Assembly (NCBI GenBank): GCA_023301785.1
Contig: JALZUF010000239.1
Coordinates: 1 to 45,226 of the forward strand
Source of the DNA: Alphaproteobacteria bacterium
GTDB lineage: Bacteria; Pseudomonadota; Alphaproteobacteria; Micavibrionales; Micavibrionaceae
Direction: 5' to 3'
DNA length: 45,226 nucleotides
Under the pieces are notes generated by a model. The model was not told the DNA's origin and ran no database searches. It saw only the letters and a list, made by a program, of their open reading frames with translations. The position numbers were made by a program, and so were the translations under genes. Within the stretch, counting starts at the first letter, position 1. Each line of letters opens with the position of its first letter. Shown here piece by piece: positions 4,905 to 45,226 of this stretch.

Positions 4905-5124
4905 TGCGCCTTTCTTCATCCATTTCAAATTGACACTCTCTAAGAGCACCTGATATACCCTGATAGTTCAGGTCGTACTCTGCTGCTCTTTCTTCGATAA
5001 CCTGCATTAGCTCCTTATGTAGAGCTACATGTGGGTCATCTGCGTCCTCACAAATCCTAATCGGACTTGGGCGGGATAGCTGTATGTGCTTCGACTGCAT
5101 CGGGGAATTTTTCGAAGATTTCAT
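4888..5124 (-). CDS. Hypothetical small protein (start uncertain)
   Basis: 78-aa ORF overlapping the upstream gene by 68 nt. An internal ATG at 5007 preceded by AAGGAG would give a 39-aa product. Confidence 0.4.
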   Translation of the reverse strand: MKSSKNSPMQSKHIQLSRPSPIRICEDADDPHVALHKELMQVIEERAAEYDLNYQGISGALRECQFEMDEERRNDDAE

Positions 5125-5668
5125 CTACTCTCTCCTGTAAATCTGCTCTGAGTTTATCCATCTCTGCTTTAGGTGGACGATCATCTACCATCATGTCTTG
5201 AATCATAGCATCTCGTAAGACGAATAGCGAAGCAATCGCCTTAGTAATATGAGATAGTTTTGTATCGGGGTCTAGGTCTTCACCTTCCCACCACTGCATG
5301 ATATGTCCAATAGAAGCGTCTACGTACACACTAGCTCTTACACCAGCTACACGGTAGTTATGTCTACCGTACTTACGCGCACCCTCTAGCATAGCTACAC
5401 CGACTTCTGCCAGTACAGTCCAAGAGACAGTGCTGAATATGCGCCACTTCTTAGTACCCACTGCATCTTTAGGGTTTGTGTCTTTTCCAACTGGACTAAC
5501 TAGTTGGAATCTACTTGCTGTGTGACTGTAGTCTGAGTTTTGTTCCTCAAACTTTAGATACCCACCATCTAACTTAACTGTAAGTACAGGGTACTTAGAG
5601 GGTGGAAAATTATGACACGCCCACTCTGAATCTTCTATCTGTACTACTTTGTCTCCATCCTGAAACAT
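5057..5668 (-). CDS. Putative nucleotide diphosphohydrolase-like protein (all-alpha MazG/MazZ-like C-terminal domain) with a small N-terminal beta domain
   Basis: Start set at the ATG in the TAATG overlap with the upstream stop (GGAGAG SD). The motif NPKDAVGTKK...GARKYGRHNYR...HIMQWWEGEDLD matches my recollection of the phage dATP/dGTP diphosphohydrolase N-terminal family. Not verified by search. Confidence 0.5.
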   Translation of the reverse strand: MFQDGDKVVQIEDSEWACHNFPPSKYPVLTVKLDGGYLKFEEQNSDYSHTASRFQLVSPVGKDTNPKDAVGTKKWRIFSTVSWTVLAEVGVAMLEGARKYGRHNYRVAGVRASVYVDASIGHIMQWWEGEDLDPDTKLSHITKAIASLFVLRDAMIQDMMVDDRPPKAEMDKLRADLQERVDEIFEKFPDAVEAHTAIPPKSD

Positions 5669-7323
5669 TATGCTCTCCACTTTCCATTTTTCATTGTAAT
5701 AATTGTTCTCTTACCATTAGGGTATGTAACGATATGGCTGTGACTCCAAGAACTAGGTCCTCGGTTGTAATCCATGTCCATCTTACAAGAAATCCCTGCT
5801 ACATAAATACCATCAATAATTGCCGCACTGTGTGTGTGACCTACGTTACATTTACGACCAAGGTTACGTAAGGAGTTAGGGTTTCCTCTTGCTCCGTTAG
5901 GTCCTCGGTGTCCGTGCATACCACACTCAATACCGTTTTGACCACAGATAACATAACTGTCATCCTCATCCAAAAACTCAGTATACTCTAGGTCGAAATG
6001 CTTACGAACCGCGTGTTCAAATATGTGAAATCTGGGGTTTCCCTTACGTATTTCCTCAAACAATTTTCCATTAAATTTATGAAAGTACTCTGCGTTCTCT
6101 GGGTCAGTTCTAATATCCGCCTCTGCTAACCAACGTCTAAATGCTTGGTCGTGGTTGCTTTCTACAACAACAGTCTTACACCAAGTTCGTTCTAGTTCAA
6201 TAAGGGCTAGTGCTGAATCCTTCATACCATCTTCTACACTACCTGTCTCTGTGTGGTAACGCTCTGCTAGGAAATGAGGGTTCTTTAGATTATGGTGGTT
6301 ACGTGCTTTAAAATCTGTCAAATCGTGAATGAACTGGTGCTGTGGTTCTAGTACGTCTAGCATACTGTCATCTGCTTCCCATGCGTTGTGCGCTACATCT
6401 GCATCAAGCATCTCTGCATGAATGTCTCCCCAGTTAATAGCTTCAACACGTTGTCCTTCAACAACTTGACCACCTGTATAGTAGGTGTTAAGGTCATAAA
6501 AGTCTCCGTTAGTATCCGCAACTAATTGTCTTGCAAAGTCTGTACCTTCATCGTCAATCTCTACTAGTAAAGCACCAAATACGTGGTGAAACTCTGCTTT
6601 CTGACCTGCTTTACGTTGGATATAGTTACGTTGCGTGCACGCCCCTGTAGTGTATAGCATCTTGCCCGGCTGTCCTTTCAGGACGGGTACAGATTTAAGC
6701 TGCACCTTTGCATGAGGTATAATGCTACTAGCTGTGCGGGTATAACTGTCTAAGCTTCCCATAGGGTTAGCTGCTGTAGGGAGAATATCCAACTCACCAC
6801 ACCACACCATACCATTAAGGCTCTCTTCTAAAGTCATACTTTCGTCTACTACATACGGAGCGATACGATCATCGAACCATAGGTCATCTTTATCTTTTGT
6901 ACTGTTCTGAAAGCCTGATTTATTATAGCGGAATTTACCCACTACTAACTGTGCATCATTATGCTGACAGTAACTTAACAAGTTCTCCCAAAAGGCTTCA
7001 TGCACAAACGTATTATTTTGCGCGGAGGTAAATACGAACTTGCGCCCTCCAAGACTACCCCGTCTTTTATCTGGCGCATCAATAGTACCTCCAGCGACAG
7101 GTCTAGGGTCTTCATCAACTTCTTCACTTGTTTCATCGTCCGTTTGGGCGTTTGCGTAGTCAAGATTACCCTTGACCCACTTAGCGCGGCGGCGATAGAA
7201 AGTCGCAATGCTGAGTCGCTCTTCCCCGTTCGCTGCCAGTAATTCATTGAACTCATAAAAGTCTCCTTGGGCTGTTTCGAACAGCTCTATAAATAGCTCT
7301 TTGCTAGGTCCTACTAAATCCAT
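5668..7323 (-). CDS. Calcineurin-like metallophosphoesterase domain protein (551 aa) with an acidic linker and a large N-terminal region of unknown function
   Basis: Ordered metallophosphatase motifs: WGDIHAE, ESNHDQ, GMHGHRG, VGHTHSAA. Confidence 0.7.
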   Translation of the reverse strand: MDLVGPSKELFIELFETAQGDFYEFNELLAANGEERLSIATFYRRRAKWVKGNLDYANAQTDDETSEEVDEDPRPVAGGTIDAPDKRRGSLGGRKFVFTSAQNNTFVHEAFWENLLSYCQHNDAQLVVGKFRYNKSGFQNSTKDKDDLWFDDRIAPYVVDESMTLEESLNGMVWCGELDILPTAANPMGSLDSYTRTASSIIPHAKVQLKSVPVLKGQPGKMLYTTGACTQRNYIQRKAGQKAEFHHVFGALLVEIDDEGTDFARQLVADTNGDFYDLNTYYTGGQVVEGQRVEAINWGDIHAEMLDADVAHNAWEADDSMLDVLEPQHQFIHDLTDFKARNHHNLKNPHFLAERYHTETGSVEDGMKDSALALIELERTWCKTVVVESNHDQAFRRWLAEADIRTDPENAEYFHKFNGKLFEEIRKGNPRFHIFEHAVRKHFDLEYTEFLDEDDSYVICGQNGIECGMHGHRGPNGARGNPNSLRNLGRKCNVGHTHSAAIIDGIYVAGISCKMDMDYNRGPSSWSHSHIVTYPNGKRTIITMKNGKWRA

Positions 7324-9291: not shown

Positions 9292-10113
9292 CTACTCAAG
9301 TAGTTCACTTGGCACATCGTTGAGAAGGATTGTAGAAATCTCTTCATTATTATATTCCTTTGGGTCTAATTTTGTACGTATGACACGAACTACACCACCC
9401 TGCATCATCAAGGCTTTACATGCTTTTCTCGCACCGCGCACACCAGCTTCATCACCATCATACCAGACAGCAAAGTTGCTATAATTTTCTAATAACTGAG
9501 TAGCCATGCGGTCACTCAGACTTGTACCTAATGTACTAACACAGTCGTTTAATCTACCTACGCGGACAGTACTAAGAATATCCTCTGTAATAACAAGCTC
9601 GTCAGTAATTCTATCCAGTTGTACCTCTGGGTCGTGCCAGAACATACAGTTTGAACTACCCTTCTTGTTAAGATACTTAGGTTTCATAGCGTCCCACACG
9701 GAACGACTCTGTACTGCTGTAAGCTCACCGTCTTCATAGACAGGTAAAACAACTCTATTCATACACTCCGACCAACCAAACCCATAGTGTTCTATGAGTG
9801 CCGACCCCACTCCACCTTTAAGCAACCAAACCCTACCGTAGTCTGGTATGTCTGTGTCAAAGTCATAAGGTAATTCAAGCTCACCTTGGGTAGCCATATA
9901 TTCATTTAATTCTTTCCTGTGTTTAATCATATCCTTTAAGGAACGAGTACCATGAGACACGAACTTACGTGACCCATCCCCACACCTAAAACAATATGTA
10001 CTATAGCCCTTTTCAGTATGGCTGATAACTTGCGAAACGTCCTTCCGACAACAGTTTATTCGTTTTGTTCTCCCGCAAGGCAATGTCCTCGCTATCTTCT
10101 CCCATTCCTGCAT
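9292..10113 (-). CDS. DNA primase (zinc finger + TOPRIM)
   Basis: N-terminal Cys cluster CGRTKRINCC...YCFRCG. TOPRIM Glu (VITEDILS) and DxD (VWYDGDEAG). Confidence 0.9.
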   Translation of the reverse strand: MQEWEKIARTLPCGRTKRINCCRKDVSQVISHTEKGYSTYCFRCGDGSRKFVSHGTRSLKDMIKHRKELNEYMATQGELELPYDFDTDIPDYGRVWLLKGGVGSALIEHYGFGWSECMNRVVLPVYEDGELTAVQSRSVWDAMKPKYLNKKGSSNCMFWHDPEVQLDRITDELVITEDILSTVRVGRLNDCVSTLGTSLSDRMATQLLENYSNFAVWYDGDEAGVRGARKACKALMMQGGVVRVIRTKLDPKEYNNEEISTILLNDVPSELLE

Positions 10114-11733: not shown

Positions 11734-11888
11734 TACACCTCCATAAAGGACACGCACATAAAGCGGTCATCTGGTCTATTGTGTTTCAGTATCTCTAATG
11801 TGTCTTTACACACGTCCATAGAGTCATAACCGTACAAACTAAGTAAGGGTATGAATTGGTCTGTTATTAGATAAACTATTGTTTCCAT
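11733..11888 (-). CDS. Hypothetical protein (51 aa; below the ORF-track cutoff)
   Basis: Hand-translated: METIVYLITDQFIPLLSLYGYDSMDVCKDTLEILKHNRPDDRFMCVSFMEV. AAGGAGGA SD upstream. This is the first ORF after the tRNA-like element. Confidence 0.65.
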   Translation of the reverse strand: METIVYLITDQFIPLLSLYGYDSMDVCKDTLEILKHNRPDDRFMCVSFMEV

Positions 11889-11905
11889 GTAATCCTCCTT
11901 TGTTG

Positions 11906-12000
11906 TGGAGAGGAGTGGTAGGGTTTGAACCTACATCCGACTGTATAGGGCTAACTACCCATTGACAGTTGAACTACCAGTGTTAGCGTCTACACTCCTC
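11906..12000 (-). ncRNA. Aberrant 95-nt tRNA-like element; anticodon and identity unresolved
   Basis: Minus-strand sequence: GAGGAGTGTAGACGCTAACACTGGTAGTTCAACTGTCAATGGGTAGTTAGCCCTATACAGTCGGATGTAGGTTCAAACCCTACCACTCCTCTCCA. It has a perfect 8-bp acceptor-type stem (GAGGAGTG/CACTCCTC), a canonical T arm (GTAGG-TTCAAAC-CCTAC) and an encoded T-CCA end. The interior carries two D-arm-like motifs but no canonical anticodon arm. Confidence 0.5.
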
Positions 12001-12035
12001 ATAAAAGAACACAGGAGGAGGATATTCCTGTGTTC
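12001..12035 (-). terminator. Rho-independent terminator candidate (possible early-region terminator)
   Basis: Perfect 9-bp stem GAACACAGG/CCTGTGTTC (12007-12015 / 12027-12035) with an 11-nt loop, followed on the minus strand by TTTTAT. It abuts the 5' end of the tRNA-like element. Confidence 0.6.
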
Positions 12036-12050
12036 ATTTATAGGGAGTCA

Positions 12051-12088
12051 AGAGCAGGGAGTGTCTGTGACGTTATCCTCCCTGCTCT
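12051..12088 (-). promoter_or_regulatory. Perfect 11-bp inverted repeat (AGAGCAGGGAG / CTCCCTGCTCT) with a 16-nt loop
   Basis: Read directly from the sequence. No U-tract follows on the minus strand, so it is not a classical intrinsic terminator. Confidence 0.6.
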
Positions 12089-12169
12089 ATGTACCACCAC
12101 CTGCGTACCGTCACGCGCTCAAGTGGTATAAAGATAATGCTCTATCCATAACTGACTTTGAACGGGTAG

Positions 12170-12361
12170 TCAATCAAACCACATGTCTTGCACGATACGC
12201 AACAGGGTTGCAACTGTTTCTACTGACAGTGCTTGATTGTTGCCTGACTCCTGACCGTGCGGCATTGAAGTCAAAACTGGTGTTGTGCCTATGTCTAAAC
12301 AGCACTCTAATTCGTTCTCTATGTGTTGCATACGCTGAGAAGTTACTAGTCTCCTTAGCAA
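12170..12361 (-). CDS. Doubtful small ORF (acidic, 52-63 aa)
   Basis: The track ORF starts at a TTG. The internal ATG at 12331 lies 18 nt from the nearest SD. A competing Arg-rich ORF (12174-12452) overlaps it in another frame. Neither has the good SD spacing seen for almost every other gene here. Confidence 0.3.
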   Translation of the reverse strand: MLRRLVTSQRMQHIENELECCLDIGTTPVLTSMPHGQESGNNQALSVETVATLLRIVQDMWFD

Positions 12362-15231: not shown

Positions 15232-15260
15232 ATTATGCCATGATGAATAACTAAAGTCAA
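15232..15260 (-). promoter_or_regulatory. Sigma70-type early promoter P1 (TTGACT-N17-CATAAT with TGn extended -10)
   Basis: Minus strand: -35 at 15260-15255, -10 at 15237-15232, preceded by TGG. It shares the AATTTAnnTGTTGAC upstream context with P2. Confidence 0.7.
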
Positions 15261-15704: not shown

Positions 15705-15778
15705 TGGCACAGGCACTAGGAATCGAACCCAGATTAACGGGTTTGGAATCCGCTACTCTACCATTGAGTTATACCTGT
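15705..15778 (-). tRNA. tRNA-Trp (anticodon CCA), CCA end encoded
   Basis: Hand-folded cloverleaf: acceptor ACAGGTA/TGCCTGT, D arm ACTC-AATGGTA-GAGT, anticodon loop TTCCAAA, T arm CTGGG-TTCGATT-CCTAG, then GCCA. One A-C mismatch at the base of the anticodon stem. 74 nt. Confidence 0.85.
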
Positions 15779-44967: not shown

Positions 44968-45226
44968 CAAAGCAATCCTCAATCATTTCGTCTTCGTCAA
45001 TGTCCTCAACTACTTCCTTCTTAGCTTTTTTCTTAGAAGGGGATTTGGTCGCAGTCTTCGCAGAGGGTTCTGCCTTTTTCGATTTCTTTGCGGCAGTCTT
45101 GGCAGCGACCTTTTTCTTTTTTGGTGCTTCCTCTACTTCTTCCTCCTCATCGTCTTCATCAAGATCAATGTCTTCTACATCAACTTCTTCATCTTCATCG
45201 TCCTCTTCTTCGATCTCTTCTTCTTC
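44954..45226 (-). CDS. C-terminal part of the wrap-around SSB-like protein (unique part 44954-45127; 45128-45226 duplicates 1-99)
   Basis: The in-frame continuation is ...EEAPKKKKVAAKTAAKKSKKAEPSAKTATKSPSKKKAKKEVVEDIDEDEMIEDCFDDED, with the stop at 44954-44956. Confidence 0.45.
   Translation of the reverse strand, partial: EEEEIEEEDDEDEEVDVEDIDLDEDDEEEEVEEAPKKKKVAAKTAAKKSKKAEPSAKTATKSPSKKKAKKEVVEDIDEDEMIEDCFDDED
45128..45226. repeat. Right copy of the 99-bp terminal overlap
   Basis: Identical to 1-99. Confidence 0.95.

Follow-up and report, generated by a model that had tools for sequence, protein, structure and literature searches.

The locus and the structure of the element

The window analyzed here, the whole stretch of 45,226 nucleotides of contig JALZUF010000239.1, represents a complete circularly assembled (or terminally redundant) phage genome of ~45.1 kb, with bases 1–99 identical to 45128–45226. 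The phage is an Autographiviridae-like (T7-like) podophage with every gene on the minus strand, and its gene content includes a T7-type RNA polymerase, portal, terminase, primase (9292–10113), DnaB-like helicase, ligase and family A DNA polymerase. The closest cultured phages, namely, Vibrio 1.204.O, 526E57-1, the Rhizobium RHph phages and Agrobacterium Atu_ph02, show only ~40% RNA polymerase identity. The genome reads as long open reading frames (ORFs) in the standard code, carries a canonical tRNA-Trp gene at 15705–15778 (identified by both ARAGORN and Rfam) and has near-consensus sigma-70 promoters at 15260–14446, where the early region starts. At the end of a small early ORF block, ~1.8 kb upstream of the primase, lies a 95-nt tRNA-like element (11906–12000, minus strand; RNA position i corresponds to 12001 - i). 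The analysis revealed a real anticodon-less tRNA-like element, which is neither a selenocysteine tRNA (tRNA-Sec) nor a suppressor nor a misread ordinary type II tRNA.

The element lies 6 nt past the early-region hairpin and 6 nt ahead of the Shine–Dalgarno (SD) sequence of the next gene. The hairpin with its U-tract (12003–12035, minus strand) consists of a 10-bp stem (12035–12007; about -15 kcal/mol) with a loop containing CCUCC, followed by UUUU (12006–12003), in agreement with the original prediction, which had placed a strong hairpin with a U-tract directly before the element. It is kept in five phages with compensatory changes in the stem and a constant CCUCC-containing loop, and is a terminator or processing hairpin ending the early region. 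The downstream signals occupy 11886–11900 on the minus strand: the SD AAGGAGG (11900–11894) begins 6 nt past the CCA, and the ATG (11888–11886) opens a 51-amino-acid ORF that is conserved in the relative L003. No convincing sigma-70 site was detected inside or just before the element, and since there is no room for a promoter between the hairpin and the SD, RNAs carrying the downstream genes must contain the element as well.

Read from 12000 to 11906, the RNA is GAGGAGUG UA GACGCUAACACUGGUAGUUCAACUGUCAAUGGGUAGUUAGCCCUAUACAGUCGGAU GUAGG UUCAAAC CCUAC CACUCCUC U CCA; the coordinates and the strand had been predicted correctly. The acceptor strands GAGGAGUG (11993–12000, minus strand) and CACUCCUC (11910–11917, minus strand) form the perfect 8-bp helix described originally, with 8/8 Watson–Crick pairs and a pair probability of ~1.0; counted from A2, it is a 7-bp helix. 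The 5′ strand is the same in the closest relative, L002, and contains GAGGAG, the sequence serving as SD in phages without the element, and the 3′ strand is near-identical in L002 and in Rhizobium phage Paso. Stacked directly on the acceptor is the T arm GUAGG-UUCAAAC-CCUAC (11918–11934, minus strand), with a 5-bp stem including G53-C61 and a loop fitting UUCRANY. This arm gives a local Rfam match to tRNA positions 44–63 and shows compensatory changes in relatives. The discriminator U and the encoded CCA (11906–11909, minus strand) complete the end; UCCA is also present in L002 and CCA in Paso. The acceptor stem, discriminator and CCA are those of a canonical tRNA, and the canonical T arm and encoded N-CCA end noted earlier were both borne out. 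A purpose-written chance scan for a T arm with a TTCRANN loop and an adjacent 7-bp acceptor closing 40–99 nt matched only this element in the window and gave 0 matches in 200 window shuffles.

The D-arm region (RNA 9–26; 11975–11992, minus strand) comprises a U8/A9-like UA, a non-canonical stretch and the first D-loop-like motif, and forms a weak hairpin, GCUA-ACAC-UGGU, with a probability (P) of about 0.5. No D arm of 3–4 bp was found from position 10, only displaced D-like hairpins of 3–4 bp (P 0–0.5). Two D-arm-like motifs had been reported and are present; the 5′ half of the element carries short repeats together with a piece resembling the D arm of the phage tRNA-Trp (TCAATGG(G)TAG match). 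Thermodynamic folding placed the following 40 nt (RNA 27–66; 11935–11974, minus strand) in a long central arm with a P of about 0.9, in which an anticodon-stem-like ACUGU/ACAGU helix closes a 20-nt loop, and that loop in turn forms GGGU-AGUUA-GCCC. The central arm offers no 7-nt anticodon loop, removing any 13 consecutive loop bases leaves no U33, and an anticodon arm with a 5-bp stem, 7-nt loop, U33 and purine 37 was not found. The hairpin UGGUA-GUUCAAC-UGUCA, proposed earlier as presenting a UCA anticodon, can be drawn on paper, but its P is 0.01–0.03 and the central arm dominates. The competing helices listed with it exist: ACUGU/ACAGU is part of the dominant central arm, and GCUAAC/GUUAGC reaches a P of 0.06 in the folding ensemble. 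The tRNA-like fold was retained when the element was folded in a 176-nt context. The 3′ side of the central arm (CUAU-ACAGU-CGGAU) together with the T arm aligns gap-free with the tRNA-Arg(UCU) of the relative L007 and with cyanobacterial tRNA-Arg(UCU), the aligned part covering the 3′ part of the anticodon loop, the stem, the variable loop and the T arm.

Comparison with tRNA classes and other tRNA-like RNAs

The element was not called by ARAGORN at default settings, with introns allowed or at the 80% threshold, and at 60–70% only nonsense models ignoring the real acceptor were obtained. The tRNA-Trp was the sole Rfam match in the window at the gathering threshold; at E ≤ 10, only the T arm of the element was aligned, with 12.8 bits (local) against the RF00005 cut-off of 29, and no tRNA-Sec, transfer-messenger RNA (tmRNA) or Y RNA match appeared. 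Neither program places the element at the level of a canonical tRNA (RF00005), and the ARAGORN checks suggested earlier, with intron and tmRNA options, yielded no tRNA or tmRNA call. The real tRNAs of the same phages are canonical, with Rfam scores of 52–73 bits. The concern that an ordinary type II tRNA had been misfolded by hand can be set aside, as ARAGORN (introns, low thresholds) and Rfam both fail.

The effect of removing every internal segment of 1–35 nt was evaluated in a deletion series of 1470 variants. Only four were called, all of them equivalent and amounting to a weak "Leu(CAA)" of 87 nt that has G32, U37 and a mismatched stem; a D arm was accepted by ARAGORN only once 8 nt had been deleted. 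A tRNA with a single insertion was rejected on this result. An intron-containing tRNA was likewise rejected (intron search negative; no 13-nt excision gives U33), as was a tandem 19-nt duplication, only GGUAGUU repeats being present.

The element resembles type II tRNAs (Ser/Leu/Tyr, RF00005) in its acceptor helix, U8-A9, T arm with UUCRANY loop and N-CCA, and its homologues in L002 and Paso keep a Ser-like D arm and a long variable arm. Unlike these tRNAs, the window copy is devoid of a canonical D arm, a 5-bp/7-nt anticodon arm and a long variable arm, and has eight acceptor pairs rather than seven. The likeness to bacterial tRNA-Sec remarked on in the original prediction extends to the 13-bp stack split 8+5, the length of 95 nt and a UCA that can be placed in a 7-nt loop, and no further: there is no 6-bp D stem with a 4-nt loop after U9-A10, no long variable arm (the variable region measures 0–5 nt in the favored folds), the UCA fold is negligible, and Rfam gives no match. 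No selA/selB-like Pfam matches were seen among 20 window proteins scanned, no systematic search for selenoprotein machinery having been made. The suppressor reading is unsupported, the long ORFs being intact in the standard code.

Top-half tRNA mimicry without an anticodon arm is also seen in the tRNA-like domain of tmRNA and in bacterial Y RNA (YrlA) mimics (PMC4201824). The window element differs from these in having no G3:U70, in being too short for a tag ORF and in its ends, which form an acceptor and not a Ro-binding stem. Identification as tmRNA was rejected (ARAGORN tmRNA search negative, G-C at position 3, no Rfam match), and Y RNA was rejected for want of an Rfam match.

Occurrence in related phages

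Relatives were reached from primase homologues and followed to full-length contigs, and protein identities gave two clades, one of the window and L002 and the other of L001, L003 and L004. In L002, whose proteins are 66–81% identical to those of the window, a 98-nt type II tRNA-like gene occupies the same slot, after the same hairpin and ...UUUUAUGAGGAGUGUAG. It was called tRNA-Stop(UUA) by ARAGORN and scored 37.2 bits with the Rfam tRNA model. It shares the GAGGAGUG-UAG start and the CACUCCU end with the window, and has a Ser-like D arm, a long variable arm and the T arm GCAGG-UUCGAAU-CCUGC, followed by CACUCCU-U-CCA. Its anticodon stem contains two mismatches; alternatively, the minimum-energy structure has a solid stem around a loop of 13 nt.

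BLAST of the window element against cultured phages identified an unannotated 106-nt element in Rhizobium phage Paso (MT708546.1) at 6246–6351 (L437:2423-2528), 2 kb upstream of the primase, which is 39% identical to the window primase. This element reads GUGGUGUG UA UCCAAUCGGGUAAAGGGA C CUGUA-GCUCCAAGAG-UACAG, then a 30-nt variable arm, GUAGG-UUCGAAC-CCUAC CACACCUC CCA and UAACAACAGGAG. Its T arm and acceptor are near-identical to those of the window and its 3′ flank is similar; it is type II-like, with a Ser-like D arm and a long variable arm. ARAGORN was negative, and Rfam gave a full-length but sub-threshold match of 24.9 bits; the "anticodon" loop of the element measures 10 nt. The Paso element is partly covered by the annotated 34-amino-acid hypothetical protein CPT_Paso_013, the coding sequence of which is probably spurious.

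The fourth carrier, the L435/L007 phage (terminase 73% identical), harbors a 95-nt element that is preceded by the same leader motif and followed by a homologue of the 121-amino-acid protein of the window. Its acceptor has 7 bp and one C-C layer and adjoins the T arm GUUGG-UUCGACU-CCAAC; ARAGORN reported an odd "tRNA-Arg(CCU)", and Rfam gave no match. Past the 121-amino-acid homologue, tRNA-Met(CAU) (L435:18841-18916; 73.5 bits) and tRNA-Arg(UCU) (L435:19005-end/L007:1-68; 52 bits) were found, making this locus a small tRNA island with two canonical tRNAs right after the gene that follows the aberrant element.

The top halves of the window and L002 elements are identical at 31/35 positions, with one compensatory T-stem pair, and the window and Paso differ at two acceptor layers (one compensatory) and at one base of the T loop. 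Across the 13-layer acceptor/T stack of the four elements, 96% of cells pair and 5/13 pairs have changed on both sides, a result matched by 1/500 shuffles; slid registers dropped to 40–60% pairing. No significant similarity was seen among the interiors of three elements (window, L002 and L435), the alignment z-scores against shuffles being 0.4–1.0 (1.0 for window and L002), and their homology was rejected on these values. A solid "anticodon" stem with an oversized loop recurs in the window (20 nt), L002 (13 nt) and Paso (10 nt).

No copy of the element is present in the sister clade (L001, L003 and L004), where AAUGAGGAGG/AAUAAGGAG and the start codon come immediately after the hairpin. Sequence comparison of these junctions suggests that a tRNA gene either entered by SD microhomology or was deleted between GAGGAG and the downstream AGGAGG. 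Nothing comparable was found at this slot in L006, L027, L028, L312–L314, L436, 80 IMG/VR relatives and four more cultured relatives. Megablast and blastn of INPHARED phages around the locus gave no match, nor did IMG/VR searches by the exact T-arm/acceptor pattern, primase protein, leader motif and Paso-type pattern. A search with the downstream 121-amino-acid protein returned L002 only, and a terminase search no further close relative. A JGI metagenome scan (ATGAGGAGTGTAG..CCACTCCT) returned 19 loci, all representing one unrelated protein-coding gene, and a loose T-arm/acceptor pattern (genomes, IMG/VR) was unspecific, retrieving ordinary tRNAs (Trp, Leu, Arg and others) that share CACTCCT.

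Other tRNA-like sequences were encountered in these searches. A 79-nt element considered as a family member (L302:11436-11514) was rejected as an RNA like the tRNA-like domain of tmRNA: it is a mini tmRNA-like domain, GGGGGUGAUAGGUAUCGAC..., with G3-U70, an ACCA end and a 16-nt loop replacing the tag region, and directly precedes an SD; the sequence of its 3′ end occurs in >120 IMG/VR contigs, mostly in tmRNA 3′ fragments behind a TATAAT box. Among the IMG/VR matches listed (L149–L228; e.g., L172, L210, L225; L214, L223), there were about 50 class-I-shaped tRNA(UAA) genes of 73–76 nt, three contigs with an aberrant AGGAGUGUAUCCCC... tRNA-like element and a tRNA-Lys(UUU) gene interrupted after the D arm by an insertion of ~45 nt; several of these tRNA-like genes were missed by ARAGORN.

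The leader upstream of the element (~12036–12175, minus strand) is conserved and structured, and matches no Rfam family. It contains the motif TGGrTAnnGCAnTATCnnTnyAC (12126–12148; one copy in the window), which forms a covarying hairpin, and a second hairpin, GCAGGGAG...CUCCCUGC, at ~12054–12085. The structured leader is common to the window, L001–L004, L006, L435 and L436, with or without the tRNA-like element. The loop of the hairpin at 12007–12035 always contains CCUCC(U), complementary to the GAGGAG(G) just downstream, which the sister clade uses as SD and the window as the 5′ strand of the acceptor; this complementarity may point to an SD-sequestering switch. Elsewhere in the window, a dATP/dGTP diphosphohydrolase-like gene (5057–7323, minus strand; PF18909) adjoins a conserved 551-amino-acid replication-module protein without a Pfam match.

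Interpretation of the tRNA-like element

Judged by sequence, the ancestry of the element from a tRNA gene is secure, owing to the same-slot elements in L002, Paso and L435 and the alignment of the 3′ half with tRNA-Arg(UCU). There is good support for the loss of canonical decoding capacity from the window copy in the failure of ARAGORN and Rfam, the absence of a rescue by any single deletion, the very low probability of the UCA fold and the oversized loops, while the tRNAs of the same phages remain canonical. The element can be grouped, as its most degenerate known member, into a small family of long (95–106 nt) tRNA-like genes. In the few Autographiviridae-like phages that carry it, the family occupies the 5′ leader of the first "middle" operon, that of the replication module. 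The retained part is the upper half of the tRNA L-shape, i.e., an 8-layer acceptor on a 5-bp T stem, with N-CCA and a T loop matching the consensus; the D, anticodon and variable parts are scrambled and are predicted to close into a long arm without a 7-nt anticodon loop.

By analogy with known processing signals, any surviving activity would most likely depend on the top half alone. Bacterial RNase P needs only an acceptor/T-arm stack and RCCA, and the t-elements of plant mitochondria make mRNA ends in this way (PMC1920247, PMC4919913), the acceptor/T half being sufficient for RNase P and the 3′ enzymes (PMC1920247). An intact acceptor/T stack within an mRNA precursor, next to a gene, is what was found in the window, and a tRNA-shaped module beside a coding region in an mRNA precursor is likewise seen in t-elements, mascRNA-type signals and tRNAs co-transcribed with mRNA (e.g., the E. 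coli tufB operon). Those systems were mapped experimentally; the window element, in contrast, is phage-encoded and located 6 nt before an SD, and we infer that it is transcribed, folded and cleaved. In such a scheme, it would be co-transcribed with the downstream middle genes, cleavage at its 5′ end would be made by RNase P and cleavage behind the CCA by the usual tRNA 3′-end enzymes, and the double cut would excise the element, leaving a middle-operon mRNA with a defined short 5′ leader. A non-decoding element in the leader of the first middle operon, the top half of which is still recognized, most simply by RNase P, is accordingly the reading tentatively favored here, with doubt slightly outweighing confidence. 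That these elements constitute a conserved class of phage-encoded anticodon-less "top-half" tRNA mimics (8+5 stack, N-CCA, lower half running free) at the early/middle boundary is unlikely on present evidence. The dedicated role that such a class would have is equally doubtful, whether it lay in maturing the replication-module mRNA through RNase P, in controlling its translation, or in titrating immune toxins or host factors that target the acceptor ends of tRNAs.

Several observations weigh against a top half that is still in use. The internal repeats (GGUAGUU twice, GUAG four times and UUCAA twice) suggest slippage scars. The acceptor of L002 is lost when folded in context, and L435 is without an encoded CCA. 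The conservation rests on four carriers with columns chosen by structure and is partly a matter of ascertainment, Paso having been found through the top half. The element is dispensable, as the sister clade and about 100 other relatives do without it. The Rfam scores, 37.2 (L002), 24.9 (Paso), 12.8 with the T arm only (window) and none (L435), look like the progressive decay of one tRNA gene. Hence, an inert pseudogene has to be considered, in which an acquired tRNA gene lost its function and the window copy, the furthest decayed, has been scarred by small duplications and insertions and is heading for deletion. Such a fate accords with the falling scores, with the internal repeats, with the failure of any single deletion to restore a tRNA, and with a patchy distribution that includes a clean absence in the sister clade, where AAUGAGGAGG has the appearance of a junction left by a deletion between the acceptor GAGGAG and the SD AGGAGG. 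Debris of tRNA occurs elsewhere in relatives, the intergenic region L312:1304-1464 of a related phage holding a fusion of one D-arm-like piece with two T-arm-like ones. The element shares partial homology, tRNA-finder failure, patchiness and att-type tRNA fragments in the region of relatives with the tRNA pseudogenes and fragments of prokaryotes and mobile elements (PMC9897764), and combines partial tRNA homology with orthology to a recognizable tRNA gene. Unlike those pseudogenes, its acceptor strands, T arm and CCA are intact and conserved across diverged phages: the perfect 8-bp acceptor, the T arm with its consensus loop and the CCA survive at a protein divergence of 19–34% from L002 with a randomized interior, the top half is retained in the far more distant Paso, and 95 dead bases are rarely retained in compact T7-like genomes. 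The pseudogene explanation, though somewhat unlikely in itself, ranks only a little below the favored reading. Two of the three possibilities raised originally, a tRNA mimic and a recombination-scarred pseudogene, still stand, with no clean separation between them in the data. The variability in relatives, which had been named as a possible objection to the element, is real as regards its absence from the sister clade and most relatives and its unalignable interior, but does not extend to the conserved acceptor/T half.

A decoy or competitor for host factors acting on the tRNA acceptor end or T arm (anti-phage toxins modifying or cutting the 3′-CCA end, or tRNA-processing enzymes), protecting host or phage tRNAs during infection, would explain why only the top half and N-CCA are retained and would suit an early production from the early/middle boundary. 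Phage tRNAs are known to counter tRNA-targeting defenses (PMC10264068, PMC11555353), and tRNA tails are an immune target (PMC12851939); the known countermeasures, however, are functional tRNAs and not anticodon-less ones. With no linked gene or defense context, a single-copy RNA that makes a poor sink for catalytic toxins, and a carrier (L435) without an encoded CCA, such a role is very unlikely. A working non-canonical tRNA (suppressor, allo-tRNA or tRNA-Sec-like), charged, e.g., by seryl-tRNA synthetase and used on the ribosome, is highly improbable: the 8/5 stack as in bacterial tRNA-Sec, the Ser-like D arms and long variable arms of L002 and Paso, the ARAGORN anticodons UUA (L002) and CCU (L435) and the UCA loop that can be drawn in the window are to be set against a window copy without a long variable arm, canonical D arm or stable 7-nt loop, an L002 anticodon stem with two mismatches or a 13-nt loop, ORFs intact in the standard code and no Rfam match to tRNA-Sec. 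As it is the 3′ half (anticodon loop to CCA) that is canonical, the element could also derive from the 3′ half of a host tRNA carried as an attP-type attachment site by a temperate ancestor, the matching 5′ strand having been supplied by a pre-existing SD, GAGGAG, which is the ancestral SD motif. In Rhizobium phage RHph_Y48 (MN988512.1 3219–4360, L440), an integrase lies beside an opposite-strand tRNA 3′ fragment (T arm, acceptor, CCA) with an annotated attL, so that temperate phages integrating into tRNA genes exist among the relatives of this phage group; primase homologues also occur in bacterial chromosomes. This origin is nevertheless extremely unlikely. No integrase was detected among 30 window proteins scanned, the 5′ match runs beyond the SD to UG-UAG, typical of tRNA positions 7–10, full-length tRNA-like genes are present in L002 and Paso, and the element is on the gene strand, unlike the RHph_Y48 fragment. 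The loose-pattern genome scan gave no identical tRNA 3′ end among the matches listed.

The favored reading, a non-decoding element with a top half still recognized, concerns a family that is small and patchy, and we infer its proposed function. If the element is only a decaying tRNA, it documents the entry of a tRNA gene into a T7-like genome (by SD microhomology), its erosion and its deletion. If the top half is truly maintained, the element would represent the equivalent, in a bacterial virus, of organellar t-elements and mascRNA, in which the tRNA shape is kept for RNA-processing or tRNA-end-binding proteins and not for decoding, and standard tRNA finders would be missing a class of phage tRNA-like genes. 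Paso is a cultured carrier, which makes the question open to direct testing.

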